64,000 nt of DNA from a virus: positions 1 to 64,000 of IMG/VR virus record IMGVR_UViG_3300028920_001037. The stretch is one strand, 5' to 3'. Position numbers and translations under genes: made by a program. Within the stretch, counting starts at the first letter, position 1, and each line of letters begins with the position of its first letter. The notes under the pieces are model-generated. The model saw nothing but the letters and a program-made list of their open reading frames with translations, was not told the origin of the DNA and ran no database searches. This document shows positions 33,978 to 60,878 of the stretch, piece after piece.

Positions 33978-33985
33978 TATTTATA
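33978..33985 (-). promoter_or_regulatory. Late promoter TATAAATA
   Basis: Exact octamer upstream of a GAGG RBS. Confidence 0.7.
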
Positions 33986-33989
33986 TTTA

Positions 33990-36900
33990 TTAGTTTAACA
34001 TCATAACACGATTATTTAAGGATACTACAGCACCTGAACTAGAACTTGATTCAGAAGACTCTGAACTGCTAGATTCAGATGAACTACTAGACTCTGAACT
34101 TGAGCTTTCAGATGATGAGCTAGATTCACTAGAACTAGATGATGAACTTGACTCGGATGATGATGAGCTAGATTCTGATGATGAACTTTCAGATGAACTG
34201 CTTGATTCGGAAGAAGATTCTTGTGCCAGTTCTAAATAAAGTTTACTTATATAAAATTCATGAAACTGACTTCCAGTAGATTCATGATCTATTCTTAATA
34301 TAATATCTCCAGCACTTAAATAATCAGAAGAATCTAAAAGACTAAATGCTGAAGTGTATGGAGAACTAGCATCTGGAAAATCTGTAGTTGCACTTGTTAC
34401 ATCATCCCATTGTGATAGAGTATAATTCCATTGTTTCAATTTTACATTATGTGATGGGCTTCCATCATAATATCCAGTAAAGTTTAAAATAATATCAGTA
34501 GATGGTACATCATCATATTCACCATATTTAAAATCATATACAAAACCTGGAGTACCACTAGTTTCACCCAATACTAAATTATTACTGCTACTTTCTTTAT
34601 ATACGTCTGATAATTGACCAGCCAGTATACTACCAACTACAACATTTAAGGATGAAGGATTCCACCAATTATCAGCCTCACTACTACTAGATTCAGAACT
34701 TGAGCTCGACTCACTAGAACTTGACTCTGAACTTGAACTTGATTCAGATGATGAGCTTTCTGACGAACTTGATGATTCTGAACTTGAACTTTCCGATGAT
34801 GAGCTAGATTCACTAGAGCTACTAGACTCCGAACTTGAACTTTCAGATGATGAGCTAGATTCACTAGAGCTAGATTCTGATGAACTGCTTGACTCACTTG
34901 AACTTGATTCAGATGAAGAACTTGACTCACTAGAACTCGACTCAGACGAACTTGACGATTCAGAACTACTTGATTCCGAACTAGAACTCTCTGATGAACT
35001 TGACGACTCAGAACTAGAAGATTCAGACGATGAACTAGACTCTGATGAACTAGAACTTGACTCAGATGAAGAACTTGACTCAGATGAACTAGATGATTCA
35101 GAACTAGAACTTTCCGATGAAGAACTTGATTCACTTGAACTGCTACTAGATTCGGAACTTGAACTTGACTCAGATGAGCTACTCGACTCAGATGAGCTAC
35201 TACTTGATTCACTTGAACTAGATGACTCAGATGAGCTACTACTTGATTCACTTGAACTAGATGACTCAGATGAGCTACTTGATTCAGATGAACTAGAAGA
35301 AGAACTTTCAGAACTAGAACTTGAAGATTCACTACTACTACTTGACTCAGACGAACTACTACTTGATGACTCTGAACTTGAGCTAGACTCTGAACTTGAG
35401 CTACTAGATTCCGATGAAGAACTAGATTCCGATGAAGAACTAGAACTAGATTCGCTTGAGCTACTTGACTCCGATGATGAACTAGACTCAGAGGAGCTAG
35501 AACTAGATTCACTTGAGCTAGATGATTCTGATGATGAGCTTGACTCAGAGGAACTAGAACTTGATTCTGAACTACTACTTGACTCACTTGAACTGCTAGA
35601 TTCAGATGAGGAACTAGATGATTCAGAACTAGAACTTGACTCACTAGAACTACTTGATTCTGAACTTGAGCTACTAGATTCACTAGAACTACTTGATTCA
35701 CTTGAACTAGATGACGAACTTTCAGAACTAGAACTAGACTCACTTGAGCTACTGCTTGATTCTGAACTGCTACTTGATTCAGAGGAACTAGAACTTGATG
35801 ATTCTGAACTACTACTTGACTCAGAACTAGAACTAGAACTTTCTGATGAACTACTTGACTCAGATGATGAACTTGACTCAGAGCTAGAACTCGATGATTC
35901 TGAACTGCTACTCGACTCACTTGAACTTGATGATGAACTTTCTGAACTTGAGCTTGATTCACTTGAGCTACTGCTTGACTCGGAAGAACTTGACGATTCA
36001 GAACTACTGCTTGACTCAGAACTGGAACTAGAACTTTCCGAACTGCTAGAAGATTCTGATGAACTTGATGATGAACTTTCTGAACTTGAGCTTGATTCAC
36101 TTGAGCTACTGCTTGACTCAGAAGAACTTGACGATTCAGAAGAGCTAGAAGATTCACTACTTGAACTTGATTCAGAGGAACTACTGCTAGATTCCGATGA
36201 AGAACTAGATTCCGATGAAGAACTAGAACTAGATTCTGATGAACTACTAGATTCACTTGAACTGCTACTAGATTCTGATGAACTGCTTGATTCGGATGAA
36301 GAACTAGATTCTGATGAACTTGAGCTTGACTCTGATGATGAACTTGACTCACTAGAGCTAGATGATGAACTCTCCGATGATGAGCTTGACTCAGATGAAC
36401 TAGAACTCGATTCACTAGAACTGCTTGATTCTGAACTTGAGCTAGATGACTCAGATGATGAACTTGATTCTGATGAAGAACTTGATTCACTTGAACTAGA
36501 ACTTGACTCCGATGATGAACTAGACTCACTCGAGCTACTACTTGATGATTCAGAACTACTACTAGACTCACTTGAGCTACTACTTGATTCCGATGAACTT
36601 GATGACTCAGATGAAGAACTAGAACTCGACTCACTTGAGCTAGATGATTCTGATGAACTAGATGATGAACTTTCCGAACTAGAGCTAGATTCTGAACTTG
36701 AACTAGAAGATTCCGAACTACTACTAGACTCACTTGAGCTACTGCTTGATGATTCACTGGAGCTACTTGATTCGCTAGAACTAGAACTTGATTCAGAACT
36801 ACTGCTAGATTCTGAACTAGAACTTGACTCTGAACTTGAACTACTAGATTCAGATGATGAACTTGACTCAGAACTAGAACTACTACTTGATTCAGATGAA

Positions 36901-39074
36901 GAACTAGACTCACTTGAGCTACTACTTGATTCACTAGAGCTAGACGATTCTGATGAAGAGCTTGAGCTAGACTCAGAAGAACTAGAAGATTCCGAACTAC
37001 TACTAGATGATTCACTTGAGCTAGATGACTCTGATGATGAACTAGAACTTGATTCAGAAGAACTAGAAGATTCAGATGAGGAACTAGATGATTCAGAACT
37101 AGAACTTGACTCACTAGAACTACTTGATTCTGAACTTGAACTTGATGACTCAGAAGAACTACTAGACTCCGATGAGCTTGATGATGAACTTTCTGAACTT
37201 GAGCTTGACTCAGAACTAGAACTACTTGACTCACTTGAGCTAGATGACTCTGATGATGAACTAGAACTTGACTCACTAGAACTACTTGACTCAGAGCTAG
37301 AACTTGAAGATTCCGATGAACTACTTGATTCAGAACTACTACTTGACTCTGATGAAGAACTTGATGATTCAGAACTACTACTTGATTCAGATGAACTAGA
37401 ACTTGACGACTCAGAAGAACTACTTGACTCCGATGAGCTAGAACTCGATTCTGATGAAGAACTTGATTCAGAACTACTACTTGACTCAGAAGAACTAGAA
37501 CTTGACTCGCTAGAGCTACTAGATTCACTAGAACTTGATGATGAACTTTCAGAACTAGAACTAGACTCAGAAGAACTAGAACTTGATTCAGAACTACTAC
37601 TTGACTCACTAGAACTACTTGACTCAGAACTTGAGCTACTTGATTCTGATGAGCTAGATGATTCTGATGAAGAACTAGAACTTGATTCACTTGAGCTAGA
37701 TGATTCTGATGAACTAGAACTCGATTCTGATGAACTACTTGACTCTGATGAACTAGAAGATTCACTACTTGAACTTGATGATTCAGAACTAGAGCTTGAC
37801 TCGGAAGAACTAGATGACGAACTTTCAGAACTAGAACTAGACTCACTTGAGCTACTGCTTGATTCTGAACTGCTACTTGATTCTGAACTTGAACTTGATT
37901 CTGATGAGCTACTGCTTGACTCAGATGAGCTACTTGATTCAGATGAACTAGAAGAAGAACTTTCAGAACTAGAGCTTGACTCAGAACTAGAGCTACTCGA
38001 TTGACTAGAACTTGATGACTCAGAGGAACTACTAGATTCAGACGAGCTAGAACTTGATTCTGATGAAGAACTAGATTCCGAACTGCTACTTGACTCAGAA
38101 GAACTAGAACTTGACTCGGAACTACTGCTAGATTCACTAGAACTAGATGAAGATGATTCGGAACTAGAACTTGATTCAGAACTACTGCTTGAACTTGACT
38201 CACTAGAACTGCTTGACTCCGATGACGAGCTTGATGACTCAGAAGAGCTACTTGATTCTGATGAAGAACTCGATGAACTCGATTCACTCGAACTTGACTC
38301 GCTTGAACTTGATTCAGATGAAGAACTTGACGAACTTGACTCGCTTGAACTTGATTCAGATGAAGAACTTGACGAACTCGATTCAGAACTTGAAGAATCT
38401 GCTGAAGCAATTTCAGGTCCTCCCTCGCTTACAAATGTCGGGCCACCACCAGCAGTAAAATTACCACCACTACCCATATTAGTGGTTCCCTGCGCTTCAA
38501 TATAAACAATAGGGGAATAACCACTTCCTGCGGTTGCAGGGGCTTTACCACTTAAATAGAAAAGGTCTCTGTTTGAAGATTGGGAAAGGTCAATATATGT
38601 ACCATGTATCTCCCATATTTCAGAAAGAGAACCTTTGAAGTCCTTTGTTACATTCGGAGCAGTACCAATGGAGTAGTTAATATATTTAAGGTCAATGGTA
38701 TCATTTGTATATGTGATGACGTTTAGCTCATCAACACCATCAACATACAGATGCCGTTTGCTTGTGTCAGACATATCCACTGAAAACATGAAGTGATGCC
38801 ATGCAGTATCAGTAAATGTGGATGTGCTTTTTAATTGAAGAATAGTACTACCAGAGGAATTTTTACCTATAATCTCTATTTTATCATCTGTTTGAAGTGA
38901 TACAATTCCTCTTGCATTGTTACCGCATAGACGTGCCAAAACACCATGATTACCATCACGCTTAAACCACAAAGATACAGTCCACAGCTTACTATCAGCA
39001 TCACCTGTAAGAGTACCACCCCTTACATACCTATCATTTACACCATCGTAATATACTGTATCTTTGAAAGCCAT
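33990..39074 (-). CDS. Giant serine-rich repeat protein: N-terminal LamG/ConA-like domain, about 1240-aa (Ser)nGlu tract, C-terminal beta-rich domain
   Basis: WTVSLWFK...WHH....D......LYVDG...IG......GSLSE LamG-like signature; uninterrupted 1694-codon frame. Confidence 0.85.
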   Translation of the reverse strand: MAFKDTVYYDGVNDRYVRGGTLTGDADSKLWTVSLWFKRDGNHGVLARLCGNNARGIVSLQTDDKIEIIGKNSSGSTILQLKSTSTFTDTAWHHFMFSVDMSDTSKRHLYVDGVDELNVITYTNDTIDLKYINYSIGTAPNVTKDFKGSLSEIWEIHGTYIDLSQSSNRDLFYLSGKAPATAGSGYSPIVYIEAQGTTNMGSGGNFTAGGGPTFVSEGGPEIASADSSSSESSSSSSSSESSSSESSSSSSSSESSSSESSSSESSSSSSSSESSSSSESSSSSSESSSSSESSSSSSSESSSSSESSSSSSSESSSSSESSSSSSESSSSSESSSSSESSSSSSESSSSSESSSSSQSSSSSSESSSSSESSSSSSSESSSSSESSSSSSESSSSSESSSSSESSSSSSESSSSSESSSSSSSESSSSSESSSSSSESSSSSESSSSSESSSSSSESSSSSESSSSSSSESSSSSESSSSSSESSSSSESSSSSESSSSSSESSSSSESSSSSSSESSSSSESSSSSSESSSSSESSSSSESSSSSSESSSSSESSSSSSSESSSSSESSSSSSESSSSSESSSSSESSSSSSESSSSSESSSSSSSESSSSSESSSSSSESSSSSESSSSSSSESSSSSESSSSSSESSSSSESSSSSESSSSSSESSSSSESSSSSSSESSSSSESSSSSSESSSSSESSSSSSSESSSSSESSSSSSESSSSSESSSSSSSESSSSSESSSSSSESSSSSESSSSSESSSSSSESSSSSESSSSSSSESSSSSESSSSSSESSSSSESSSSSSSESSSSSESSSSSSSESSSSSESSSSSSESSSSSESSSSSSSESSSSSESSSSSSESSSSSESSSSSESSSSSSESSSSSESSSSSSESSSSSESSSSSSSESSSSSESSSSSSESSSSSESSSSSESSSSSSESSSSSESSSSSSSESSSSSESSSSSSESSSSSESSSSSESSSSSESSSSSSESSSSSESSSSSSSESSSSSESSSSSSESSSSSESSSSSESSSSSSESSSSSESSSSSSSESSSSSESSSSSSESSSSSESSSSSESSSSSSESSSSSESSSSSSSESSSSSESSSSSSESSSSSESSSSSSSESSSSSESSSSSSESSSSSESSSSSESSSSSSESSSSSESSSSSESSSSSSESSSSSESSSSSESSSSSSESSSSSESSSSSESSSSSSSESSSSSESSSSSSESSSSSESSSSSSSESSSSSESSSSSSESSSSSSSESSSSSESSSSSESSSSSSESSSSSESSSSSSESSSSSESSSSSESSSSSSESSSSSESSSSESSSSSESSSSSESSSSSSESSSSSESSSSESSSSSESSSSESSSSESSSSSESSSSESSSSSESSSSESSSSSESSSSESSSSSESSSSESSSSSESSSSSESSSSESSSSSESSSSESSSSSESSSSESSSSSESSSSEADNWWNPSSLNVVVGSILAGQLSDVYKESSSNNLVLGETSGTPGFVYDFKYGEYDDVPSTDIILNFTGYYDGSPSHNVKLKQWNYTLSQWDDVTSATTDFPDASSPYTSAFSLLDSSDYLSAGDIILRIDHESTGSQFHEFYISKLYLELAQESSSESSSSSESSSSESSSSSSESSSSSSSSESSSSSESSSSESSSSSESSSSESSESSSSSGAVVSLNNRVMMLN
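34677..38396 (-). repeat. Codon-degenerate (Ser)nGlu coding repeat, 3720 nt
   Basis: TCN/AGY/GAR codons apart from a single Gln; a shorter tract lies at about 34035-34220. Confidence 0.95.
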
Positions 39075-39127
39075 AGAATCTATCCTATATAAGAATAGTT
39101 TTAATTAAATAATAATTTACTTGACTG

Positions 39128-40186
39128 TTACTTTGTAAATGTTAAAGTTACAGCAAGTCCATTTGGAGGAGTTACGTTGACAGAATCTACATCAATATAC
39201 AGTTGGTCTCCAGTATTAACATCATCATTAGAAGTATCTATTACTCCATCTCTAGCAAAATATTCACCATTTGATAATGTAATAGGAGTGGATAACATAT
39301 CTACATCAGAACCACTTCTTTTTCTACGAATTTGTATATCTGTAGTACTTCCACCAGAACCCGCATCATATACAGTTGCTACTGCATCTGTCAATTTCCA
39401 CCCATTAATTTCTAATGGAACTCCGAATGCAATAGTACCATTTCCAGTTGAAATAGCCTGTGTAGACTCAAAAGGAGTTATACAAACAGATTTTGTATGA
39501 GTATGGTCGTCTAATGTATCAAAAGATTTTTGAATAGTATTATCGGCCGATGTAAGAATATCATCAAAATTATTTGTATCTACACTAGCTGATTTTGCTC
39601 TACTAGTTATTAATCTAATGGTATCATTTTCACCAAGACCGCCACCAAGAAATCCACTTTTAACGGTCATCAAATTCTGTTCAATAAAACTTAAAAATTC
39701 TCTTTTAAGGTCTTCATTTCCAGATAATAACTTCAGAAAACTTTCAACCGTCATTTTACCGGCTTTACCAGTCTTACCAGGTTTTCCATTCTTACCATCT
39801 TTACCCGGTGGTCCTGGTGGGCCTTGTGGGCCTTGTGGGCCTTCGGTTACTAAACCATCTTTACCCGGTGGTCCTGGTGGGCCTTGTGGGCCTGTTATAG
39901 AAAGTCCATCTTTACCAGGCGGACCTTGTTCTCCCTTAATTTTTTGTATAAAATCTTCGTGAGTATTAAGAAATTCTATAATAAAGTTTAAATCATTCTC
40001 TGTAAGAAGTGTTTTGCCTTTTAAATCTTCTCGGCCCTCTTTTATAAGAAAATAATCTAAAATGTCTTTTCTTACATTTTTAATTAATAATTCTTCTAGT
40101 GGAACACTTTCAAGAGATGATATTTCTTTTTTGCGGAGAAACTTTATTATTTGATCTCTCTCAAATTTTGGTATTCTTTTTTTCAT
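39128..40186 (-). CDS. Collagen-like (Gly-X-Y) virion fibre-type protein
   Basis: [13 protein letters not shown] repeats; beta-rich C-terminal domain. Confidence 0.75.
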
Positions 40187-40195
40187 AATGCAAAA

Positions 40196-40501
40196 TTAGA
40201 CCATTTGTTGAAGTCTTGTAAGTGCTTCTTCTGACTCAAGATACTGATTACCCTTCTCTGTAATTTCTTTCTCTTTAAGATATTCAAAAGCATTAAGCTC
40301 TTCAATGGCTTCTGCATATTTTTGCTCATCAAGATTTTCACCATTTGCCTTAACAACCAAGGCTACAAGTGCATTATCACTAAGCTCGCTTCTTAATAAA
40401 ACATGCTTTTTAATAATGTTTTTAAGCTCTGGATTCTCTTGAAGAATATTAACTTTGGGTGTATCTTTTGTGGCTCTGAAATTTTTAAAATTAGTTTTCA
40501 T
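40196..40501 (-). CDS. Hypothetical protein
   Basis: GGAGGAG RBS; follows a late promoter. Confidence 0.65.
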   Translation of the reverse strand: MKTNFKNFRATKDTPKVNILQENPELKNIIKKHVLLRSELSDNALVALVVKANGENLDEQKYAEAIEELNAFEYLKEKEITEKGNQYLESEEALTRLQQMV

Positions 40502-40555
40502 TGAAACTCCTCCAGAATTTGTTATAAATTAAATACTTATATAGTACCTCTATTA

Positions 40556-40563
40556 TATTTATA
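40556..40563 (-). promoter_or_regulatory. Late promoter TATAAATA
   Basis: Exact intergenic octamer heading the collagen/serine-rich genes. Confidence 0.7.
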
Positions 40564-40567
40564 ATTT

Positions 40568-40915
40568 TTAATCTAACCTTCCACCAACAGTTCTTCTTAT
40601 AATATCAGGACCTTCCATAGATACCCAGTAAATCTCATAAACAACTGAATCTTTATTAGCCTTAAATTTGTGTATAAGTTTTGGTGGAACAGTTGATTGG
40701 TCAAAAGCCTTCAAGACTGTAGTTTCATTAATGCCGTTTTCCTGGAATATAGTAACTTCTATTTCACCACTCTCTACAAAGAATTGATTATACTTATAGT
40801 CATGGAAATGTTCACTACAATATCCACCTTTATCTATTTCTATTCGGTGGATTTCTACATTGTTAAGTTCAAATATTTTACTTGTTATTCCCCAAATTTT
40901 TGATTGTTTAACCAT
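40568..40915 (-). CDS. Cupin domain protein
   Basis: K.WG, CS.H.H..K...F.V.SG, P....H.F, E. Confidence 0.8.
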   Translation of the reverse strand: MVKQSKIWGITSKIFELNNVEIHRIEIDKGGYCSEHFHDYKYNQFFVESGEIEVTIFQENGINETTVLKAFDQSTVPPKLIHKFKANKDSVVYEIYWVSMEGPDIIRRTVGGRLD

Positions 40916-41781
40916 TATAAACTCCTTTTTTCCAATATTCTGGTAACTTTAATAGCAGTATCAACATTTGATAAATATTTATTATCTAATAAATCTTTAA
41001 AATATTCCATCGAATTTTTAAGGTTATTTTTTTCATCATACATCAAACCCTTTTTATCAGTTATTAAATCTTCTGAAAGATCCTTATACGTTTTATCATA
41101 CCAAGTTATCATCAATGGTATATCATCTAATGGATTATATCTAGCAAAAGCTTTAGTTCCATAAAAATTAATATTGAAATCCTTTTTATAATAATCTAAA
41201 CTTACATTTATTTTTACAGTTACTTTTTTATTTTTACAGGTAATAGACCCTGTTGTACAAATATTATTATTAAACATATAATCATCAAACTTATATTCAA
41301 ATGAATTCAAATCAAAAAACATATCCAATACGGATAAATGATGTGAAGCCAGTAACCAATAAACATCAAACTCCATAAATCTGCCAAGATGTTTAGTTGA
41401 CATTTCAATATATTTAATCTGACCAATATCATATTTTGAAAATTCTAATAAACACTTTGAAAACATTTGTGTATATTCAACTGCCAACTTCAATTGTTTT
41501 TCTTTAGCTATTTCTTTAAGCTCTATAGCTTCGTTTAAATGTAAACTAATAGGTTTCTCAACATAAACATTTTTTCCGTTTAATAAAGCTTCTTTAGTTA
41601 ATTTATAATGTGTATCTATTGGTGTTGCTATAATGACAGATTCAACTTCATTATCTTTCCATATTTGATTAAGATCAAATTTAGAATTAGCTATATACTT
41701 AACATCAAAAGATACATACATATAATTTAATATTTTACTGCCCCAATATCCACATCCAATTAAGGCTATTTTACTTTTCAT
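40915..41781 (-). CDS. Gfo/Idh/MocA family NAD(P)-dependent oxidoreductase
   Basis: IGCGYWG, IATP...H, VEKP. Confidence 0.9.
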   Translation of the reverse strand: MKSKIALIGCGYWGSKILNYMYVSFDVKYIANSKFDLNQIWKDNEVESVIIATPIDTHYKLTKEALLNGKNVYVEKPISLHLNEAIELKEIAKEKQLKLAVEYTQMFSKCLLEFSKYDIGQIKYIEMSTKHLGRFMEFDVYWLLASHHLSVLDMFFDLNSFEYKFDDYMFNNNICTTGSITCKNKKVTVKINVSLDYYKKDFNINFYGTKAFARYNPLDDIPLMITWYDKTYKDLSEDLITDKKGLMYDEKNNLKNSMEYFKDLLDNKYLSNVDTAIKVTRILEKRSL

Positions 41782-42704
41782 AATTCTTCTATTATCCTTT
41801 TAAACTGTTCAAACCTATGATACTCTGTATGATTTTCTAAAACAAACTTTTTACCATTCTCTCTTATATGTTCATAATCTTCTGGATGATTTATAATATC
41901 TTTAATTGTTTTTTCAAGATTTTCCTCATTAACTTCTACATAATTGACTGATGGTATAAACCCAAGTTTCTTCATGTCTTCACATGTATCTGATAATAAA
42001 ATAGAACCTGTGGATGGTATTTCAAAGTTTTTTCTAACCGTATATTTATAAATTGAACAAGACGATAAACAACACAAATATTTATGTAAATGACTTACAT
42101 AATCATATTTAATTAATGGTTTTTTGGTAAACTTAGGAGTTTTTAAAATATCAATTAAATTGTCTTTACTTAAATATTTTGAAGCAAAGAATCTTAAAGG
42201 ATAATATTTTTTTCTTATTGCTCCAGATATAAGACATTTATTTATTGGATTTATATTCTCTGGCATTTTTTTTACAAAATCTGAAAGACTTAAAAATTGT
42301 GGTATCCACTCAGCCTTTTCAATAAATTGCGGCCATCTGTTTTTAAAAGCTTCATCATATGTATATACTATTTTATCACATCTTTCCATTAACTTAGAAA
42401 ATCGTTTTCTCCTTGTTTTTGTTGACGCTGTTCTATGCATATCTACAAAATATCCAATAACTTTAATATTTTTAGGAAGATTAAAAACAATATCTTCACT
42501 CTGAAAAACTTTAAGATGACTAGGAAATCTAAAAGTTATAACAACATCATAATCATATAATTTTTTAAAACTATCAGCATCTTGCCATATAATTCTTTCA
42601 AATCCTAAATTTTTCTCTATTAATTCAAATAATGGAACATATGCTCCATATCCACAATATCCACTGCCACCACGCAAATTAGGAATAAATATACAACCTT
42701 TCAT
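41778..42704 (-). CDS. GT-B glycosyltransferase (CgeB-like)
   Basis: YPLR, K.FEIP.TG..LL, GF....NYV, I..NG..FV...HT. Confidence 0.8.
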   Translation of the reverse strand: MKGCIFIPNLRGGSGYCGYGAYVPLFELIEKNLGFERIIWQDADSFKKLYDYDVVITFRFPSHLKVFQSEDIVFNLPKNIKVIGYFVDMHRTASTKTRRKRFSKLMERCDKIVYTYDEAFKNRWPQFIEKAEWIPQFLSLSDFVKKMPENINPINKCLISGAIRKKYYPLRFFASKYLSKDNLIDILKTPKFTKKPLIKYDYVSHLHKYLCCLSSCSIYKYTVRKNFEIPSTGSILLSDTCEDMKKLGFIPSVNYVEVNEENLEKTIKDIINHPEDYEHIRENGKKFVLENHTEYHRFEQFKRIIEEL

Positions 42705-42720
42705 TTATTAATCTCTCCTT

Positions 42721-43443
42721 TTATCTTTGCATATTAATATTAAATTCTTTATCAATAATTCTATAATGTTCAATATGAATAACTGCTGATAAATCAAAAA
42801 CAAGTTTTCTTTCTCCAATTCTATTTCTAAATCTTTTATCACTTCTAGTTCCCATAAATCCCATTGGTTTATCTCCATAATAATCTGGTCTTACATAAAA
42901 ACCTTTACCTTTATCAAGTATAACTTTTTTTCTAACTAATTGAGCACCTCCATTAGGAACTTTTCTCTTATATACTTTAGTAATACCAAACGATTTTGCA
43001 ACATCATAAGCGGAATCAATATACATTTTAAAACAATCAAAAAATTCATTAGCATTCTTTAATTTAGTATGAGCAGTTAAAGGAAAACCGATTACTCCTT
43101 GAAACTTAGGATCAAGATAATTTTTCATTCCTTTTAAAAAATATGGATCATATATAAGATCACTATCATTAAAAAATAACCATTCTTCTGTTGAATTTTT
43201 TACTTGTATATTTCTAATTAAACCTCTTGTTTTTAATTCTTCATCATAAGGTGTAAGTTTAAACTTCAATCCTTTTTGTTCATAAAATTTTACTATAGTT
43301 TCTATATCTGGACTTCCAATACCTTTAACATAAGCTACATTAATTATAAAATCTGGTGGGTCTATTTGTTGAACTAAAGATGAAAGTTGCATAACCCATC
43401 TTCTTTGAAAATTAGTACATACTGTACATATTTCAATTGTCAT
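42721..43443 (-). CDS. GT-A glycosyltransferase (GT2-like)
   Basis: RG..RN, WLFFNDSD, C-terminal H. Confidence 0.75.
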   Translation of the reverse strand: MTIEICTVCTNFQRRWVMQLSSLVQQIDPPDFIINVAYVKGIGSPDIETIVKFYEQKGLKFKLTPYDEELKTRGLIRNIQVKNSTEEWLFFNDSDLIYDPYFLKGMKNYLDPKFQGVIGFPLTAHTKLKNANEFFDCFKMYIDSAYDVAKSFGITKVYKRKVPNGGAQLVRKKVILDKGKGFYVRPDYYGDKPMGFMGTRSDKRFRNRIGERKLVFDLSAVIHIEHYRIIDKEFNINMQR

Positions 43444-44404
43444 TTTGCTCTTTTCCTTTTTGCAACAAATCAGTTAATATTTTATCATAAAAATTTAAAA
43501 ATTTTTCTGGGTTACTTCTTATTTCACCTTTCCAAGCATGATAATGAGCAGATTTATTATCTACCCAAACATTTTTTCTATGAATATCTTTATAATATTT
43601 TTCTGTATTAATAATATTTCTATCCATCAATCTTAAATCAAGTTCTTCTGCATGTTCAGGAAATTTTTTTCTTATTGTTTGTATAAATTTAGAATCTGCA
43701 TGTGGAAGTCTCCAAAAATTTTCATACCAAAGAGGAAGATAAATTTCTCTATATTTTTTCATATTAAAAACAACTAGCCCAACACTTACATTAGAATCAT
43801 CATAATAATTTGTTAGACAAAAAGTTTCTGTATTTTTATTAATTTCTTCTTGAATATAATCTGTACATTCGTTTGTACAAACTGTATCTATATCAGACAT
43901 TATTGCATATGGAGTCCTAACATAATTTAAACCATGATATTTTGCACGATAACCAAGTCCAAGCATAGAAACAGTTGGATTAACAGATAAACCACTTCTG
44001 TGCAAAGAAACATATTTATTACTTAAATAATTATAACTATTACTTACATGATCAATTTTAAGTTTAATCGGTTCTGGTACTTTTAAAAAATCTAAATTAA
44101 AATCTTCAAATAAATTTAAAAGATATTTTGGAAAAAGTTGAAATTTTCTTTCTGGATCTCTTCTAATAGAACGAGTATCTGTTGGAACATCCCATCCACA
44201 AATAATTTTTGGAACAGTTTTTTCATTAATAATAATACTTGACATTAAAGCTGCACCTTGAGCCTGTAAATCTTCAAAATCTGTTCGTCCTTTAATAATA
44301 CCAAAAGTCCAAGAAAGATTATTATTTATTGGTTTATCCAGTTGATTTGCAATCTTCCAAATCTCTTTTATCTTTTCATTAAAGTTTTCTGAAATAATTC
44401 CCAT
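43433..44404 (-). CDS. GT-A glycosyltransferase (GT8-like)
   Basis: K, SDIDT DxD, GLVVFN, D, HYH. Confidence 0.6.
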   Translation of the reverse strand: MGIISENFNEKIKEIWKIANQLDKPINNNLSWTFGIIKGRTDFEDLQAQGAALMSSIIINEKTVPKIICGWDVPTDTRSIRRDPERKFQLFPKYLLNLFEDFNLDFLKVPEPIKLKIDHVSNSYNYLSNKYVSLHRSGLSVNPTVSMLGLGYRAKYHGLNYVRTPYAIMSDIDTVCTNECTDYIQEEINKNTETFCLTNYYDDSNVSVGLVVFNMKKYREIYLPLWYENFWRLPHADSKFIQTIRKKFPEHAEELDLRLMDRNIINTEKYYKDIHRKNVWVDNKSAHYHAWKGEIRSNPEKFLNFYDKILTDLLQKGKEQNDN

Positions 44405-45796
44405 TTAATTTCCTTTTATATTGTTTAATGCTTTTTTCCAACTCTCACTAATTTCTTCAACATTAGTTGTATGTTTGCTTTTACAATTACTATGACCACA
44501 ATATTTACATATGCTTTGTATTTGTTTTAATAAATTTTCTGATGTTATATCTTCAAATTTTTTAACTGCAATATCCATTTGAAATATTTTTGCTAATGAA
44601 GCTCCAGCACCACAAACAAAATATCCATTTGGCGTTAGGGCTATTCCACAACGCCAAGGAATTGAACAAGCCTTTATTTCTGTTTCACCATTATCTATCG
44701 GAGCAGAATTATAAGAATCAAAAGATTGTTCCTTACTTTTTTTATTAGAATTTCTTATACTAACCCAATTAGGTATTTCTTTTAACTTTTCAGTAACATA
44801 TTTACCTAATCCATTTGTACTAAATCTAATTTTACATTTTGGATTCCAATTCTTATATACTTTTATTATATCAAACATTTCTTTGAAATGTGGATAGTAA
44901 GTTGGTTCTCCACCTATAATATCTATACGCGACCATTTCTTACAGCTTTTGATTGATTTATCTACAAACTCTTCTATTTTATCTAATGGAATATATGATT
45001 TGTCTTTATATATTCCACAGTTCCTATCACAATTAAAACATCCCAATTGACAAAAAGATGTAACTTCAAGTTGTATATTATCAAGTAAATGGTCTCTTAA
45101 ATATTTATTATTACTATCAGCTGTAGCACAAACTCCTTCTCTTATTGCTTTCCATTTTCCAGAATGACCAACTCCACGCTTTCTAATATTTTTAGATCCC
45201 CAACTTCTATCAGTCATCCTATCTGCAAAATACCACAGAACAGTATCGTGACTCGGAACAGGAAGTCTATCTCCAAATTTGTTAGCTAATGTCTTTACAA
45301 ATTCGGTTTTATGAAGGCAACATATACTCTGTATTCTTTTTTCTGTATATCGTTTTCCATAATTACCTGTATCTTTACCTGTATAATATTTATCAAGTTG
45401 ATTTATCCAGTATCCAGGTTTCGTATATCCCCATCTATGAGAAACAACATCATGTCTAAAATCTTTCTTTACAAATACATCTTCAGCATTTGTAAAATAT
45501 GTATCAGCATCAATTTTAACAAAGTAATCAGTCTTAATATATTTAGCTGAACCTAATATAAAAGATGATAGCATTAGTTCTCTAACATTATCATATTCGG
45601 GCATATCCCAATTAATAAATTCTACATCAAAATGATCTTTAACAAAATTAAGGGGTTGTAAATTATCAAATCCATGGTGAAACAGAATTATTTTCTTATC
45701 TCTAAATTGTGGTTTAATATTCCAAGAAGGTAAACTCCATTTAAGTTTATCTATATAATTTGGTGTGCAGGCTGTTACTATTGTAAAATTCTTCAT
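44405..45796 (-). CDS. Glycosyltransferase-like (DxD) + radical SAM fusion
   Basis: N-terminal KIDADT; C-terminal CQLGCFNC, GGEPT, TNG, SPASM-like Cys. Confidence 0.8.
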   Translation of the reverse strand: MKNFTIVTACTPNYIDKLKWSLPSWNIKPQFRDKKIILFHHGFDNLQPLNFVKDHFDVEFINWDMPEYDNVRELMLSSFILGSAKYIKTDYFVKIDADTYFTNAEDVFVKKDFRHDVVSHRWGYTKPGYWINQLDKYYTGKDTGNYGKRYTEKRIQSICCLHKTEFVKTLANKFGDRLPVPSHDTVLWYFADRMTDRSWGSKNIRKRGVGHSGKWKAIREGVCATADSNNKYLRDHLLDNIQLEVTSFCQLGCFNCDRNCGIYKDKSYIPLDKIEEFVDKSIKSCKKWSRIDIIGGEPTYYPHFKEMFDIIKVYKNWNPKCKIRFSTNGLGKYVTEKLKEIPNWVSIRNSNKKSKEQSFDSYNSAPIDNGETEIKACSIPWRCGIALTPNGYFVCGAGASLAKIFQMDIAVKKFEDITSENLLKQIQSICKYCGHSNCKSKHTTNVEEISESWKKALNNIKGN

Positions 45797-47499
45797 TTAT
45801 CCCTCTTTGGTAAATATTTTCTCAATTGTCTATCAAATTCAATATTATCCTTAATAAAATCTAATTCTTTAATCTTATCAAACTCTGCATACCATTTGTC
45901 ACTATTAAATATGTATTTTCCATCTTTATCTAATCTACAATGTTTTCTGCCATGAAAGTGAAGAATCTTTGTCTTTTTGGTAACTTTATCATATTTACAA
46001 CTTGTATTATAATCATTTGATACTATACTGTTTTTATATTTAGGTAATAGTAAATGACATGATTGTTCATCAGGTATAAACATATCTGTGCCATGCTTGG
46101 CATAGTCAAACCAATGTTTCATTAGTTCGCTGTCTTTTTTAAAGGCATATACACCAACATTAATTGAGGCTCTTGGTTCAAGAGCTTCATCCATCATATC
46201 TGGAAATATTTCTCTAAACTCAAGAATTCTTTTCTTTATTACACTTCTTTGGTTCGTCCAATCAGAAAACTGTGTTACGACAAACTCATTCTTATCAGCA
46301 GCGTCATGAAGTTCATCAAAACTTTTTAAAACGATTGTATCAGAATCTATGAATATTGTATTCTCATATGGTGTGTATGTATGTGCTAAACATTTATTTA
46401 AAAGGATTTCTTTACGATTAAGTTTCTCTAAATCAATGATTTTTATATTAACTCCAAAATGTTTCGCTATTTTTTTACATTCATCATATCCACCATAATC
46501 TGATAGTATTGTTATTTTTTCTTTGGGGTAATGGTTTACACAAGTTGATAGAGAAACTGCAAGTCTAACCAATGCACCCTTACCAACATTATAATAAATT
46601 AATCCACATGAACCTTTAATGGGTTTTTCTGATTTTTTAATTTTTTCAATCTTGACTTTTATATCTTTATCTTTTTTATTTTGTTTTTTATCATTTTTCT
46701 CGGCGTCAAATCTATCGTACATTCCCTCAACCTTTTCTGTTTTTATATCTGGAAAATTCTTTAAAGATAATTTAATAGCTTCATCAAAATCTATAAAAGG
46801 AAAAACTTTAAGCTCTGAATCGGGATTGCAATTGTAAACATGAAAATCATTTTTTTCAAAAATGGGCTGAAGCTGAATATATCTTTCATTCATTTTATTA
46901 TATGAATTGTTATTTTGTTTAATCGAACCTGTACTTCTTGTCTGATTCCAAGAATAATTTGCTTGACCACCTTTCATCTTGAAATCACAACCAAGAAGAA
47001 AGACATTTTTAAAACCAAGTACATAACACATTTTAAGAACTGCCATCATTATACTACGACCACCACCATATTTTTTATGGTTTCCCCAATTAATAGTCTT
47101 TTCAGTTAAATATGTATCTTTATTGAAGTGTTCATTTCTATGATAGTAAATTACATTAGGGCAATCCATAACTCTTAATTCTGTTTTTTTCCAATTAAAA
47201 TTATCAAATAAAGTGGTATCAGATTTAGTTATAGGAACAAACTTAGTAATATTAGGGTCTTTCCAAACACTAATCATAAACCTTGATGGATGGTCAACAC
47301 ATGACCACAAATTAGGTCTAAAGGTTTTTGCAGAATTATTTACACCAAATGTTATTATACCGGGTTGTTTAAGTTTATTCAGGTCATGATTATTTAATGA
47401 AGGTCCAGATAAAACCAAGAAGCATGATTTATTTTTATAATGGTTTTCAATTGGAATTGGTTTCTTGTCAAATGTACTAAAGGTCAACTCATCACTCAT
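45793..47499 (-). CDS. Maf/DUF115-like domain + GT8-like glycosyltransferase fusion
   Basis: SGPSL, GVN, P..W..VD, LGFKNVFLLGCD, VYNC; second half IDSDT, NVGV, DEQ, HFHG. Confidence 0.75.
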   Translation of the reverse strand: MSDELTFSTFDKKPIPIENHYKNKSCFLVLSGPSLNNHDLNKLKQPGIITFGVNNSAKTFRPNLWSCVDHPSRFMISVWKDPNITKFVPITKSDTTLFDNFNWKKTELRVMDCPNVIYYHRNEHFNKDTYLTEKTINWGNHKKYGGGRSIMMAVLKMCYVLGFKNVFLLGCDFKMKGGQANYSWNQTRSTGSIKQNNNSYNKMNERYIQLQPIFEKNDFHVYNCNPDSELKVFPFIDFDEAIKLSLKNFPDIKTEKVEGMYDRFDAEKNDKKQNKKDKDIKVKIEKIKKSEKPIKGSCGLIYYNVGKGALVRLAVSLSTCVNHYPKEKITILSDYGGYDECKKIAKHFGVNIKIIDLEKLNRKEILLNKCLAHTYTPYENTIFIDSDTIVLKSFDELHDAADKNEFVVTQFSDWTNQRSVIKKRILEFREIFPDMMDEALEPRASINVGVYAFKKDSELMKHWFDYAKHGTDMFIPDEQSCHLLLPKYKNSIVSNDYNTSCKYDKVTKKTKILHFHGRKHCRLDKDGKYIFNSDKWYAEFDKIKELDFIKDNIEFDRQLRKYLPKRDK

Positions 47500-47522: not shown

Positions 47523-47558
47523 TATTTATAATATAATATATTATTCGTAAAAAGTCAA
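47523..47558 (-). promoter_or_regulatory. Overlapping early (TTGACT-N17-TATATT) and late (TATAAATA) promoters of glycosylation cluster 1
   Basis: -35 at 47553-47558, -10 at 47530-47535, TATAAATA at 47523-47530. Confidence 0.75.
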
Positions 47559-56022: not shown

Positions 56023-56649
56023 TTATTTAGTTGCATCTTTAAATTTCTTATTCAATAATTTAATAGCTTCTTCTATATTATCTGGTAAGGAAACATTTTC
56101 TAATAACATAAGTTTACAAAAAGCTCCACTAAATAAAAAATCAAAATCTTCCATTTTTAAACTATTGTCTAACAAATCACCAAATATATCTATAACATCT
56201 TCTTTTGTTAAATCCCATTTTGGATAATTAGTTGGAATACAAGTTATGTTTTGTCTTGTATATAATCTTGTTTTTACAGTTTCTATTGGGTTTCTAATTT
56301 TAATTCTTCTTATAGGACTTCCAGCATAAACGGAATCTTTATTTAATTTACCAGAAACCACACTAGACATTCCTATTAAACACCTTCTTTCAATAGTTGT
56401 TCCCGGTACAATAGAAACTCCATATCCTATCCACACATCTTTCTCTATATTAGTTTTTAATCTTTCAATTGATATTCCATTTATTGGGCAATGTGTTGCA
56501 ACAAAGGATCCTCCACCTAAAGTTGAATAATCTCCAATACTTACACATTTAAAATGTTGGTCTATTGTACCCCATATTCGGGCTCCTTTACCTATTTTGA
56601 AACCCATTTTTCTATATGATTCGTTTGTGTTGTGTGTTAGTGATGCCAT
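56023..56649 (-). CDS. Left-handed beta-helix acyltransferase
   Basis: Hexapeptide repeats, DVWIG, AGSP. Confidence 0.85.
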   Translation of the reverse strand: MASLTHNTNESYRKMGFKIGKGARIWGTIDQHFKCVSIGDYSTLGGGSFVATHCPINGISIERLKTNIEKDVWIGYGVSIVPGTTIERRCLIGMSSVVSGKLNKDSVYAGSPIRRIKIRNPIETVKTRLYTRQNITCIPTNYPKWDLTKEDVIDIFGDLLDNSLKMEDFDFLFSGAFCKLMLLENVSLPDNIEEAIKLLNKKFKDATK

Positions 56650-57791
56650 TATTTACCCTTCTTATAATATGTTTCATTTATTTCTAAACCCATTCGATTA
56701 CATCTTAATCCTTTATCAAAACACATTTTTTTACAATCCCAATTTGGATTATAATTATCCATAATCATTTTATTAAATTCGTCTAAATCATAAGTTACCT
56801 TACCAATTCTACATTGTTTTCCGGTTGGTGTTGCAACTGTACTACATTTATATACATATCCATCTGCACCAATTGTAATCTGATAATATCCATAAATACA
56901 TTGTTTAAAATTAAACCTATCTACATCTGTAAATTCGGGTCCGGTATAAAATATATATGGTTTTTCATTTTGGTTTTTTGATAAATATGGTTCTAATCTA
57001 TTATAATAATTATCATTATCCGGAAGCTCTCTATTATATTTATACTCTCTTACCTTATCAAATGTTTGATTATAATTTGCAAAAGGAATGGAAAACCTTA
57101 AACTGTCGGCTCCTATTCTTTTAGCGTGTTCTACAATTGCTTTAAAGTTTTCATCATTATCACTATCATGAGATATAAGATAACACATTCTTATAGCATG
57201 ACTTGGTTTACCAACTTTATCACGAATACTAGCAGCCATTTCAAGACCCTTAATAATTTCATCATTAAATATATAACTCTTTTTTGTTCCTTTAGTCTTA
57301 GCCCAAGACTCAGACAATCCAGCATCAATACTCACAGAAAGATAATCAACATCATCTGTTGAAATTCTATTCAACTCGGTCAAGAACCCTATACTATTTT
57401 CAAGTGTTGCTAAAAGACTTCCATTAGTGTGAATTCCAAAATGATTTCCATAATACTTAGTTGTTGCAAGATAAGCCATATAATATGGATTCATCATGGG
57501 TTCTGTATATGCACCGCCGTAAATATGGAAAGGAATTGCACCTTTAAGTTTGTGTAACAAATCTAGCCCTTCAATTTCCCAATTTCCTAAAGATTTATCA
57601 AATAATTTTCCAGCGCAATGAGGACAATGAAGATTACAAGATCTTTTATGATCGGCTGGTAAATGTATTTCAAACTGTCTTGGATACACTAATTTACCAT
57701 TAAAAAATACATCTTCATTATTGTTAAGATGTTTCATTAGCTGTTTATAATAATGATAAACTTCTGGTCTTGTATCTTTCATTTTATTCAT
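56649..57791 (-). CDS. Radical SAM/SPASM protein
   Basis: CNLHCPHC, EP, TNG, C....Q.TI.ADG.VY.C. Confidence 0.85.
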   Translation of the reverse strand: MNKMKDTRPEVYHYYKQLMKHLNNNEDVFFNGKLVYPRQFEIHLPADHKRSCNLHCPHCAGKLFDKSLGNWEIEGLDLLHKLKGAIPFHIYGGAYTEPMMNPYYMAYLATTKYYGNHFGIHTNGSLLATLENSIGFLTELNRISTDDVDYLSVSIDAGLSESWAKTKGTKKSYIFNDEIIKGLEMAASIRDKVGKPSHAIRMCYLISHDSDNDENFKAIVEHAKRIGADSLRFSIPFANYNQTFDKVREYKYNRELPDNDNYYNRLEPYLSKNQNEKPYIFYTGPEFTDVDRFNFKQCIYGYYQITIGADGYVYKCSTVATPTGKQCRIGKVTYDLDEFNKMIMDNYNPNWDCKKMCFDKGLRCNRMGLEINETYYKKGK

Positions 57792-59448
57792 CCTTTAAAA
57801 AATTGTTCATATAATTTAGAAAATTAACTAGTTCATCTTTCTTGCATTTATAAACTTTCTCAAAAAAATCATCCCATATTGGTTGAGTTTTTTTCCAACT
57901 AAAATTTTCTTCAACATAATTACGGTTTCTTATTCCAACTTCTTTTCTTTTTCTATGATTTTTAAACAAATAATTTAATCTTTCATTTACCTGTTTAACT
58001 ACTTTTTCTTCTGGGTTTACATCAACTATCCATTCCTTACCAAGAAGCATACTTATACAACCAACATTAGTTGCAATGACTGGTAATCCCATTGACATTG
58101 CTTCTAATATAACTCTAGGCATACATTCAGTGTTACTAAGTAAAATTAAAACATCAATAGATTTATAAAATTCTTTCATATGGTCTTGTGTTTTCTTAGT
58201 CCAAAATTTACTTCCCCAATCACATTTTTTAATAACAGGAAAATCTAATCTTGAAAATAAATGTATTCTTTTCAAAGGAACTGTACTTCCAGCATATCCA
58301 ACATTAAATCTTTTTTTATCAAAAATTACATCAGAAGAAAAATAATTTGTATCAATTGATTCGGGTAAAAATACTATCGGTTTTTTATAATTCTTCTTTG
58401 CAAAATCATATGTTTCTGGTGATATTGTTGCTATAACATCGGCATATGGATATGTAGAATTAACCATTCCACCATAACCACCAACAATGGGAATACCCCT
58501 ATCCCTGCAGTTTTGTATCAATACATCTGTAGTCTTAGGATGCATATCAGGGCCATGAAAATACATTACATCTATATTATCTAAATTGACTGTTACTTCA
58601 TTATATTTTTGTAAAATAATATTATGTTTTGTATATCTTTGCTGTTCTATACCAATATAATAATAAGCCCAACCCCATTGGTCTATAATTTTAACTATGT
58701 TTAATTTTTTTGGTCTTTCATTCATAAATGTCTTTATTTTTATAAATTCATCTTTTTTACCATCAACATAGCTTTTTTCTTCATTGTCTATATCTTTTTT
58801 AATAATACTAGTATATGCACCAAGTAGTGCATATAAATTTTTTTTAGATGGATTTTTCTGTAAAATTCTTAACAGTTTATTAGGTATATTAGCTAACCAA
58901 CTATATTCATATTTTTTATATTTTTCCATCAAATTATAATATCTTTCAAATATATTATCATCTGTCCACTTAGGACTATGATCTCCCAACACTATTTCTT
59001 TAGTTATAAATTTATAACCACGACTTTTCATTCTATTAGTCTGTTCAACCTCACACGAAAGACACGATAAGTTATATGGAAAATTTTTAAATATTTTATG
59101 TTTATATATTTTGACTCCATCTATAATAAAATCTAAATGAATATCTTTAAGTTTAAAACATATCATTGCTTCTTTTTTATCAGAATTGATTATAGCATTA
59201 TACATAGTTTCAATAGAATTAGGATACATAATCATATCATCATCAACCTGAATATAATATGGCGTTTTACAATTATCAATCATTTTTTGAAATGCTCTAG
59301 ACATTGGATAAAAATTTCTAATAACAACAATATTAAATATTGAATTTTGACTTTTTAAAGCCTCGATACAATCATTATAATTAACACTTCTATCAGTTGT
59401 AATAACAAAAACTGTTAACTCGTTTGTCAAATCAATACTAGACATCAA
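57784..59448 (-). CDS. GT2-like + GT4-like glycosyltransferase fusion
   Basis: QVDDD in the N-terminal half; E..P..ILEAM..GLPVIATNVG in the C-terminal half. Confidence 0.85.
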   Translation of the reverse strand: MMSSIDLTNELTVFVITTDRSVNYNDCIEALKSQNSIFNIVVIRNFYPMSRAFQKMIDNCKTPYYIQVDDDMIMYPNSIETMYNAIINSDKKEAMICFKLKDIHLDFIIDGVKIYKHKIFKNFPYNLSCLSCEVEQTNRMKSRGYKFITKEIVLGDHSPKWTDDNIFERYYNLMEKYKKYEYSWLANIPNKLLRILQKNPSKKNLYALLGAYTSIIKKDIDNEEKSYVDGKKDEFIKIKTFMNERPKKLNIVKIIDQWGWAYYYIGIEQQRYTKHNIILQKYNEVTVNLDNIDVMYFHGPDMHPKTTDVLIQNCRDRGIPIVGGYGGMVNSTYPYADVIATISPETYDFAKKNYKKPIVFLPESIDTNYFSSDVIFDKKRFNVGYAGSTVPLKRIHLFSRLDFPVIKKCDWGSKFWTKKTQDHMKEFYKSIDVLILLSNTECMPRVILEAMSMGLPVIATNVGCISMLLGKEWIVDVNPEEKVVKQVNERLNYLFKNHRKRKEVGIRNRNYVEENFSWKKTQPIWDDFFEKVYKCKKDELVNFLNYMNNFLKDE

Positions 59449-59464
59449 ATTATCCTTTAAAAAA

Positions 59465-60451: not shown

Positions 60452-60876
60452 TTTCCTTTAAACTGTTTCATGTGTTCAATAAACTTTTGATGCCTTTTTA
60501 AATCTTTTGAATTTTCGTTTAATTTTCTAACAATTCTTGGTGGATTTCCAACAACTAATGACCAATCTGGAATTGAATGAGCTTTAGTAACAACCGTTCT
60601 TGCTCCTACAACACAATTGTTTCCTATAACAGAACCCGGTAATATTAAAGCATTCCAGCCAATATAACAATTATCACCAATCATAATTGAATTCCATTCA
60701 CTAGAATAACCATGACATAATAAATAAGCCTGTGAAGCTATTAAACAACCAGAACCAATTGTAATAAGTTCAGGTTTATCTAAATCCAATATTCCAAATA
60801 TTAAAGTACCATCACCTATTTTTGCTCCTCTTGATCTGGCTTCACTAGCTTTAATTATTGGGTTATTATTTGACAT
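60448..60876 (-). CDS. Left-handed beta-helix acyltransferase
   Basis: IGDNCYIG..A.ILPG..IG...VVGA, GNP. Confidence 0.9.
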   Translation of the reverse strand: MSNNNPIIKASEARSRGAKIGDGTLIFGILDLDKPELITIGSGCLIASQAYLLCHGYSSEWNSIMIGDNCYIGWNALILPGSVIGNNCVVGARTVVTKAHSIPDWSLVVGNPPRIVRKLNENSKDLKRHQKFIEHMKQFKGK

Positions 60877-60878
60877 TT

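Follow-up and report, generated by a model that had tools for sequence, protein, structure and literature searches.

Phage self-glycosylation, the Maf enzymes, serine-rich repeat proteins (SRRPs) and polyserine linkers (PSLs) are each already known, and self-glycosylation of the phage particle has, to our knowledge, been shown experimentally in mycobacteriophages only. Maf enzymes act in the cytoplasm, where they transfer nonulosonic acids, and also Neu5Ac or Kdo, to serine and threonine residues of flagellin (PMC4065374; PMC11339370; bioRxiv 10.1101/2020.06.03.131540). Here we describe a viral locus that shares features with several of these systems, located in a stretch of 64,000 nucleotides (hereafter the window) that corresponds to positions 1 to 64,000 of IMG/VR record IMGVR_UViG_3300028920_001037. 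The minus strand of the window carries a gene for a 1694-residue protein made largely of serine and glutamate (the S/E giant; P0001; 33990..39074), and the transcription unit of this gene adjoins a late sugar operon headed by a transferase with a Maf-like domain. Judging from sequence and from comparison with relatives, we consider the chances to be about even that the S/E tract itself is a glycosylated substrate displayed on a virion fibre.

The open frame of the giant encodes, from the N-terminus, a LamG or concanavalin-like module (residues 1 to ~215, ending in GSGGNFT; 38430..39074), the main S/E tract (residues 227-1466; 34677..38396), a beta-sandwich domain resembling carbohydrate-binding modules (CBMs) that we call C-dom (residues 1467-1618; 34221..34676), a second S/E tract of 62 residues (residues 1619-1680; 34035..34220), and the 14-residue C-terminal peptide GAVVSLNNRVMMLN (33993..34034), all on the minus strand. 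Residues 27-153 match Laminin_G_3 (PF13385) with an E value of 2.5e-12 and 47.6 bits, compared to a cut-off of 27.6. The 1240 residues of the main tract consist of 1048 Ser, 191 Glu and a single Gln, with Glu recurring at intervals of 5-8 residues (mode 6). Neither a signal peptide nor a transmembrane segment was found in the protein, as its N-terminus (MAFKDTVYYDG...) has no hydrophobic core and its highest 19-residue Kyte-Doolittle mean is 0.98. The LPXTG motif is likewise absent, and the chain ends in ...SLNNRVMMLN. The core of this end, L[NK]NR[IV]MML, is kept in S/E giants of both close relatives of the phage (loci L006 and L007, described below), while no other protein of the studied contig shares the peptide or carries Ser-rich tags. 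When a back-translated pattern of the peptide was searched in IMG/VR, only the two known relatives were recovered, the other 22 matches being due to chance. As computed, the bare chain would have a contour length of ~450 nm and, as a coil, a radius of gyration of ~10-14 nm.

Much of this architecture had been anticipated. An earlier reading of the DNA (the original prediction) described a 1694-residue protein with a LamG domain, a tract of ~1240 Ser and Glu residues and a second globular domain, placed it downstream of a late promoter and a collagen-like gene, saw no obvious signal peptide or wall anchor, and proposed a stalk that presents a lectin domain, in the setting of a jumbo phage. Translation, composition, domain searches, predicted folds and the T4-like relatives bear these points out. 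The second domain is indeed present, but its lectin-like fold and the conserved C-terminal peptide had gone unnoticed.

The DNA of the tract is degenerate. All six serine codons occur, at relative frequencies that match those elsewhere in the phage's genes, and the repeats are imperfect, with units identified by Tandem Repeats Finder that are 60-90% alike. The longest exact repeat is 77 nt, compared to 22-41 nt in synonymous shuffles. A simple DNA microsatellite is ruled out by the mixed serine codons and by the 60-90% likeness among repeat units, and the degeneracy points to selection on composition rather than to a recent microsatellite. An open reading frame (ORF) of 1254 residues on the same strand (34646-38410), rich in V, L, Q and H, is another frame of the repeat. 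We rejected it as a real gene, given that its composition is nonsense and that it is an alternative-frame by-product.

The lead gene of the sugar operon (45793..47499, minus strand) codes for a 568-residue bifunctional transferase whose AlphaFold2 (AF2) model has a predicted local distance difference test score (pLDDT) of 94.4. Residues 9-249 are Maf/MptE-like, and residues 295-551 resemble glycosyltransferase (GT) family 8, or GT8. The first of these domains aligns with Magnetospirillum Maf (5mu5_A, residues 255-517) with a VIA-align Z of 13.7 and a root-mean-square deviation of 3.7 over 199 residues, and the PHROG match of the enzyme is a sialyltransferase. Because only residues 9-249 align with Maf, the rest of the enzyme is GT8, and no flagellin is present in the studied contig, the models indicate an N-terminal part that is Maf-like in fold and not a Maf orthologue. 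This Maf-like half also occurs as a stand-alone protein of ~250-450 residues, ~48% identical, in many environmental contigs.

The second part of the enzyme is, as modeled, an intact retaining GT-A domain of the GT8 family. Its structural matches include LgtC (Z 19.3), Skp1 alpha-galactosyltransferase (18.9), glycogenin (18.4), UGGT (18.3) and pneumococcal GlyE (17.4), and the GT8 DxD motif, D385-x-D387, is invariant in 22 homologs. The Pfam GT8 score is weak (E 0.007), and a sequence search of solved structures with the transferase returned weak glycogenin matches only. PBCV-1 A64R is also among the structural matches of the 568-residue enzyme (Z 14.3).

The genomic setting becomes clearer when relatives are considered. 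The window covers the first 64 kb of one viral contig, which is 75,062 bp long, has ~30% G+C, carries nearly all its genes on the minus strand and is rated by CheckV as 29% complete. The phages closest to it are represented by two IMG/VR records, namely a complete genome of 264,037 bp with direct terminal repeats (IMGVR_UViG_3300018080_000099, here G001, which includes locus L007) and a 124-kb fragment (G002, which includes locus L006). Both relatives encode a Gp23-type major capsid protein (E 6e-88 and 1e-85), and for this reason the contig probably belongs to an uncultured T4-like jumbo phage, with a genome of roughly 260 kb. Gp23 was not found in the studied contig, which covers 29% of the genome. 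Motifs of the T4 late-promoter type, TATAAATA, precede many genes of the contig.

Both L006 and L007 carry an orthologous sugar operon (59-80% identity), and it is directly adjoined there by giants of the S/E type, some also containing P and Q, with lengths of at least 1782, 903 and 1543 residues and with differing N-terminal heads. Two of these three giants end in L[NK]NR[IV]MML. The cassette lies 7-11 kb from gp23 in both relatives, whereas in the studied contig its neighbours on the two sides are homologs of genes found at 231 and 257 kb of G001. Since the position of the cassette differs and S/E giants nevertheless adjoin it, the fibre and sugar genes appear to have moved as one unit. The cassette proteins (window 40568-47499 compared to G001 179331-185653) are 59-75% identical, while most other shared proteins are 26-68% identical, the bulk of them 30-55%. 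This high identity, despite a 13-point gap in G+C (30% for the studied phage and 43% for G001), suggests either recent lateral transfer or unusually strong constraint. Within the complete 264-kb genome, the only long Ser-rich proteins are two that lie within 11 kb of the Maf-like gene.

One of the giants of G001 (168885-173516; L007 2-4186; P0172), the second S/E/P/Q giant of that genome, has a beta-helix-like head and ends in MFYYYRRRRL rather than NRIMML. Taken together, the stalk proteins seem to form a family whose heads can be exchanged and whose C-terminal ends are of two or more types. In L006 (7126-8661), the radical-SAM and GT2-like proteins of the operon are fused as one protein of 511 residues, a fusion that would tie the radical-SAM step to the glycan pathway.

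The association extends beyond these jumbo phages. We counted Ser-rich-tract ORFs, for which we required a segment of 60 residues or more with a Ser share of 60% or higher (75% for Ser+Thr combined), lying no farther than 10 kb from relatives of the Maf-like domain, and found one in 42 of 80 IMG/VR loci. When loci are grouped by identity of the Maf domain, thresholds of 90%, 70% and 55% give 39, 26 and 12 clusters, and the association is seen in 20, 14 and 7 of these, respectively. For 27 loci of the largest cluster, the Ser-rich ORF and the Maf-like gene are immediate neighbours. As controls we took 136 random viral loci (1.14 Mb), reusing the 22 chance matches of the peptide-pattern search. 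At the test rate ~36 such ORFs would be expected in the control loci, and none was found. In the largest group of phages with a Maf-like gene (L127 10762-12300; P0293), the gene abutting the Maf-like gene encodes a Hint/intein-like domain between long Ser/Gly-rich tracts.

A comparable arrangement is seen, within structural modules, in unrelated SU10-like, podovirus-type contigs. A complete genome of 52.6 kb (L005) encodes a Ser/Thr-rich giant with a C-dom directly behind a GDP-mannose dehydratase, epimerases and four GTs, and in a second contig (L002) such a giant follows an epimerase, two methyltransferases and a GT2. More broadly, GT2 homologs, detected with our own seed sequences, adjoin 8 of 14 Ser-rich C-dom loci with visible flanks and none of four loci without Ser-rich linkers, numbers that are small. 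Based on the linkage in relatives, the fusion of Maf-like and GT8 domains, the contrast between 42 of 80 test loci and 0 of 136 controls, and the podovirus-type contigs, we favor a functional link between stalk and cassette. The Maf-like family is strongly tied to Ser-rich-tract proteins in viral contigs.

The two globular domains of the giant are consistent with a place on the virion. Homologs of the LamG module (E 1e-48 to 1e-18) include tandem multi-LamG proteins, and others are situated close to the N-terminus in phage tail proteins of 1000-1300 residues that have a Gly-rich Gp38 adhesin end (PF05268). C-dom has no Pfam or PHROG match, and a search of solved structures with its sequence gave none either. 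It belongs to an unnamed family with 673 representatives at E<=1e-3. Its AF2 model (pLDDT 96.8) is a jelly-roll beta-sandwich, with CBM29 as the top structural match (Z 11.6), together with CBM4, 15, 16, 22, 32 and 61. A baseplate protein of phage phi812 also matches (Z 11.0), as do ConA-like and collagen proteins of uncultured phages in BFVD (TM 0.74-0.81) and tail-fibre proteins. Members of the C-dom family are fused to a DUF2460 tail protein or to LamG arrays, and carrier genes with visible flanks adjoin genes for tail-tube, SU10-adaptor or S49 prohead-protease proteins. In ~41 of 47 environmental loci, C-dom is bounded on both sides by linkers of ~50% Ser/Thr, in ORFs of up to 3605 residues. 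From fold and context, we infer a virion-associated, carbohydrate-binding role for both LamG and C-dom.

The 3605-residue ORF (L030 368-11185), from a sediment metagenome, is nearly all Ser-rich linker around one C-dom and is followed by two GT2 genes. Within the C-dom family (alignment A1), H76, H131 and H139 (domain numbering) are near-invariant, along with D99, Y70 and Y119, and this conserved set of His, Asp and Tyr residues suggests a metal site. The His set recalls the tail-associated 'YHYH' domain of Iyer et al. 2021; the YHYH profile PF14240 has no match at E<=10 in the studied contig or in the L002 and L005 records.

The first sugar operon spans 47499 down to 40568. On the minus strand behind the lead gene are a radical-SAM enzyme (44405-45796), a 323-residue protein of unknown type (43433-44404), a GT2-like protein with weak similarity (42721-43443), a GT-B-like protein (41778-42704), a GFO/IDH/MocA oxidoreductase (40915-41781) and a WbuC-like cupin (40568-40915). 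A copy of TATAAATA stands 24 nt ahead of the lead gene (47523..47530, minus strand). Another (40556..40563, minus strand) precedes the 101-residue ORF (40196..40501, minus strand), the gene for a 352-residue collagen-like fibre protein (39128..40186, minus strand) and the gene for the S/E giant, and a further copy lies directly past the stop codon of the giant (33978-33985, minus strand). The 101-residue ORF, the first gene behind its late promoter, is the conserved partner of the collagen-like gene in G001. The collagen-like protein, co-transcribed upstream of the giant, matches PF01391 (E 1.4e-6) and PHROG tail-fibre families and has a 65% identical homolog in L007/G001. Directly downstream of the fibre gene is a CCA-adding tRNA nucleotidyltransferase with an HD domain (31129-32580).

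A second glycan cluster (56023..63983, minus strand) runs on to ~70.1 kb of the contig. Its part within the window encodes two hexapeptide acetyltransferases, a radical-SAM enzyme, a GT4/GT1, an unknown protein, a sulfotransferase, two GT2 enzymes and a PseC/LegC-like DegT aminotransferase, and beyond it follow an oxidoreductase and a further pair of sulfotransferases, located at 66.8 and 68.1 kb of the contig. The three Sulfotransfer_2 genes, all of the carbohydrate sulfotransferase type, lie at 60879-61463 of the window and at 66782-67399 and 68127-68723 of the contig (L001 4783-5400 and 6128-6724), and would imply that the phage makes sulfated glycans. No transmembrane segment is predicted in the proteins of either cluster, all of which are predicted to be soluble, and no flippase, polymerase, priming transferase or membrane protein is encoded in either. 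The gene content of the second locus differs between G001 and the studied phage, a polymorphism like that of O-antigen loci. In G001, the region syntenic to it encodes a NeuB-family synthase and a CMP-sugar cytidylyltransferase (G001:C1:245309-249571; L065).

The original prediction counted five GT-type genes near the giant, of which three transferases can be supported between 40.5 and 47.5 kb (the Maf-like and GT8 fusion, the weak GT2 and the GT-B-like protein). It placed four more at 57.8-62.9 kb, where one GT4/GT1 and two GT2 enzymes are found and the fourth is the unknown protein. The co-occurrence of poly-SE proteins and GT clusters that it proposed to check is seen in the two jumbo relatives. 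Overall, that interpretation is partly supported, and the O-glycosylated, possibly sulfated or acylated, stalk that it proposed stays a candidate.

Searches elsewhere place the phage far from cultured ones. Three sequencing runs contain the sequence, all of them DNA runs labelled marine sediment metagenome, with no RNA run among those listed. Neither megablast nor tblastn against a cultured-phage collection found a relative of the region, of C-dom or of a 490-residue neighbour, and a search of the phage collection with the GT gave one weak match, which lies in a 462-kb phage that is itself uncultured. Among cultured phages, no DNA ligase exceeds 35% identity to the one encoded here. Single-sequence scans of viral contigs with the LamG domain or C-dom returned no match, and ESM Atlas gave matches to unnamed clusters only.

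We infer the acceptor, the donor sugars, the virion attachment and the biological role as follows. The giant would be a late-expressed modular adhesin or fibre in which two lectin-type domains are carried on a disordered, polyanionic Ser/Glu stalk, with late transcription yielding the enzymes and fibre proteins together. Serines of the tract may be O-glycosylated in the cytoplasm by products of the neighbouring late operon. The Maf-like domain is the likely initiating Ser-O-transferase and, by analogy, might use a CMP-activated ulosonic or nonulosonic acid as donor. Extension of the glycan could then fall to the retaining GT8 domain of the same protein, together with the GT2 and GT-B enzymes, while the oxidoreductase, cupin, aminotransferase, acetyltransferase and sulfotransferase products presumably make and tailor the sugars. 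Attachment to the particle might, we speculate, be through the conserved C-terminal peptide. LamG would lie distally and the CBM-like domain near the base. Charge and glycans might stretch the chain into a mucin-like bottle-brush that holds the carbohydrate-binding heads far from the virion, and such a brush-like fibre could serve for a first, reversible contact with glycans of the host or of particles.

Several observations weigh against glycosylation of the tract. The PF01973 (MptE-like) match of the lead enzyme (E 7e-7, 29.6 bits) falls below the gathering cut-off of 34.6, its Maf-like fold is common to the HPPK-type MptE kinase (Z 10.7), and the flagellin-binding domains that flank the core of true Maf proteins are missing. 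A nonulosonic-acid synthase and CMP-transferase were not found in the 75 kb examined, which represent 29% of the genome; G001 does encode NeuB and the cytidylyltransferase. In the studied contig, the gene of the giant is bounded by non-structural genes (the CCA-adding enzyme and others), unlike in the relatives. Furthermore, co-location alone cannot name the acceptor, which might instead be the collagen-like fibre or proteins of the capsid or tail, as in mycobacteriophages. One alternative is that the S/E tract is a bare polyanionic linker that tethers two CBM-type modules by entropy and charge, with the GTs modifying other virion proteins. Glutamate alone gives the tract a charge of ~-191 in the absence of sugar, so a plain charged linker is possible, and marine polysaccharide degraders have polyserine linkers that connect CBMs with other modules (PMC2386152; PMC2699552). 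Glycosylation in mycobacteriophages reportedly acts on capsid and tail-tube proteins (Freeman 2023, cited in PMC12582341), and the collagen-like protein travels in the same cassette as an alternative acceptor. However, the Maf-like family is tied specifically to Ser-rich ORFs, often abutting them, in lineages whose other genes differ. Serine is also the acceptor in both Maf and SRRP systems, and Ser-rich giants directly adjoin GTs even in podoviruses, whose small genomes leave little room for genes. We regard the bare charged linker as a serious, if unlikely, alternative for the S/E giant.

It is considerably less probable that the sugar clusters remodel host lipopolysaccharide (LPS) or capsule, for example for superinfection exclusion, and have nothing to do with the S/E giant. 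Iyer et al. 2021 (PMC7824862) read polymorphic GT clusters in this way, among them those of jumbo cyanophages, and the gene content seen here (DegT, acetyltransferases, GT2, GT4) is O-antigen-like and varies between relatives likewise. Yet the clusters hold no priming phosphoglycosyl transferase, flippase, polymerase, ligase or polytopic membrane protein, a late-promoter motif stands on the operon of a lytic T4-like phage, and the operon moves with fibre genes and has a Maf-like enzyme associated with Ser-rich proteins. Glycan hypermodification of phage DNA, with the S/E protein as an unrelated neighbour, seems very improbable to us, even though phage GT clusters glycosylate 5-hydroxymethylcytosine (5hmC) and 5-hydroxycytosine (5hoC) in DNA (PMC13326640; bioRxiv 10.1101/2023.12.21.572611) and late timing is compatible with DNA modification (PMC13326640). 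Known routes to DNA glycosylation start with a ThyA-family hydroxylase or hydroxymethylase or with a TET enzyme (PMC13326640). PF00303 (ThyA family) has no match in the complete 264-kb G001, whereas control genomes matched, and the Maf and GT8 folds belong to protein or glycan transferases. A TET/JBP search matched nothing anywhere, controls included, and is hence uninformative. Finally, the length or frame of the tract could be an assembly artefact, the real protein being much shorter or split. Public short-read (Logan) contigs break within the tract at many alternative joints and no piece spans it, and the tract contains the 77-nt exact repeat. On the other hand, the 5-kb frame is open with globular domains in frame on both sides, independent assemblies of other samples give S/E tracts of ~1400, 830 and 450 residues in the relatives, and the degenerate codon mix is not that of a collapsed perfect repeat, the other-frame ORF being nonsense in composition. 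An artefact on this scale is highly doubtful; it is unlikely for the gene as such and possible for the exact tract length.

Beyond the proposal that the S/E giant is glycosylated, we tentatively suggest that the Maf-like domain, alone or fused, represents a widespread, hitherto undescribed phage system for protein O-glycosylation with polyserine stalks as dedicated acceptors, a generalization that we find possible rather than probable. If true, many unrelated tailed phages would build fibres that resemble mucin, bearing a brush of glycans that may be acidic and sulfated and, at the tip, lectin or beta-helix heads that can be exchanged. Such fibres would be a viral equivalent of SRRP adhesins and of the glycosylation of flagellin. 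This would have consequences for adsorption, for the stickiness of particles in sediments and for evasion of recognition. Sugar clusters of jumbo phages are usually read as serving host-surface remodelling, and a Ser scaffold paired with a Maf-type transferase would change the annotation of such common 'auxiliary' clusters. The modular appendages that it would bring to light, very long and used for receptor binding, would form a class of their own, and glyco-engineering would gain a compact means of O-glycosylation in the cytoplasm. In searching the literature, we came across no description of polyserine proteins of phages paired with glycosyltransferases. What is new here is that the fusion is confirmed at the level of folds, that the association was tested against controls, the argument for mobility of the cassette, a CBM-like family with habitual Ser-rich flanks, and the conserved C-terminal peptide.

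Among known systems of viral glycosylation, the mycobacteriophages of Freeman et al. 2023 reportedly modify capsid and tail-tube subunits, with no giant Ser stalk and with GTs of other families. The likeness is that phage GTs modify structural proteins of the phage itself (cited in PMC12582341). The fibrils of Mimivirus and its relatives and the PBCV-1 capsid are similar in that long fibres on the surface receive their sugars from nucleotide-sugar pathways and GTs of the virus itself (PMC9614988), but these are eukaryotic giant viruses whose fibre proteins are of the GMC-oxidoreductase type and lack a polyserine scaffold.

Residues 9-249 of the 568-residue enzyme have the fold of the Maf central domain, as compared with Magnetospirillum magneticum Maf (5MU5). 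The Maf enzymes, which also include Aeromonas caviae Maf1 and Clostridium botulinum Maf, belong to systems in which Ser/Thr residues of a protein later built into an extracellular filament are modified in the cytoplasm (PMC4065374). G001 has NeuB and a CMP-sugar cytidylyltransferase, and the studied contig has a PseC/LegC-like DegT enzyme and acetyltransferases. The phage domain differs in being fused to GT8 here and stand-alone in other phages, and its presumed acceptor is a disordered Ser tract.

The SRRPs GspB, Fap1, SraP and PsrP, which are adhesins of Gram-positive bacteria, resemble the giant in having Ser-rich regions on either side of a ligand-binding domain, and they are glycosylated in the cytoplasm by adjacent soluble GTs (GtfA/GtfB, GlyE, GlyD), as is proposed for the giant. 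The phage GT8 domain superposes on pneumococcal GlyE with the Z of 17.4 given above. In contrast, the phage protein comes from a virus of a sediment bacterium, has neither a KxYKxGKxW signal peptide nor LPXTG, and is built on an S4-7E repeat rather than on SX dipeptides. Among its neighbours scanned with Pfam and NCBIfam, two of which are unassigned, no GtfA/GtfB or SecA2/SecY2 names appear.

Polyserine linkers of modular carbohydrate-active enzymes are tens of residues long. Like the phage tract, those of Saccharophagus degradans, Teredinibacter turnerae and Cellvibrio are near-pure Ser encoded by mixed codons, and they join CBMs (PMC2386152; PMC2699552). The phage protein differs in that it joins two lectin-type folds without a catalytic module or secretion signal, and in that its tract is 1240 residues long, regularly spaced by Glu and genetically tied to transferases.

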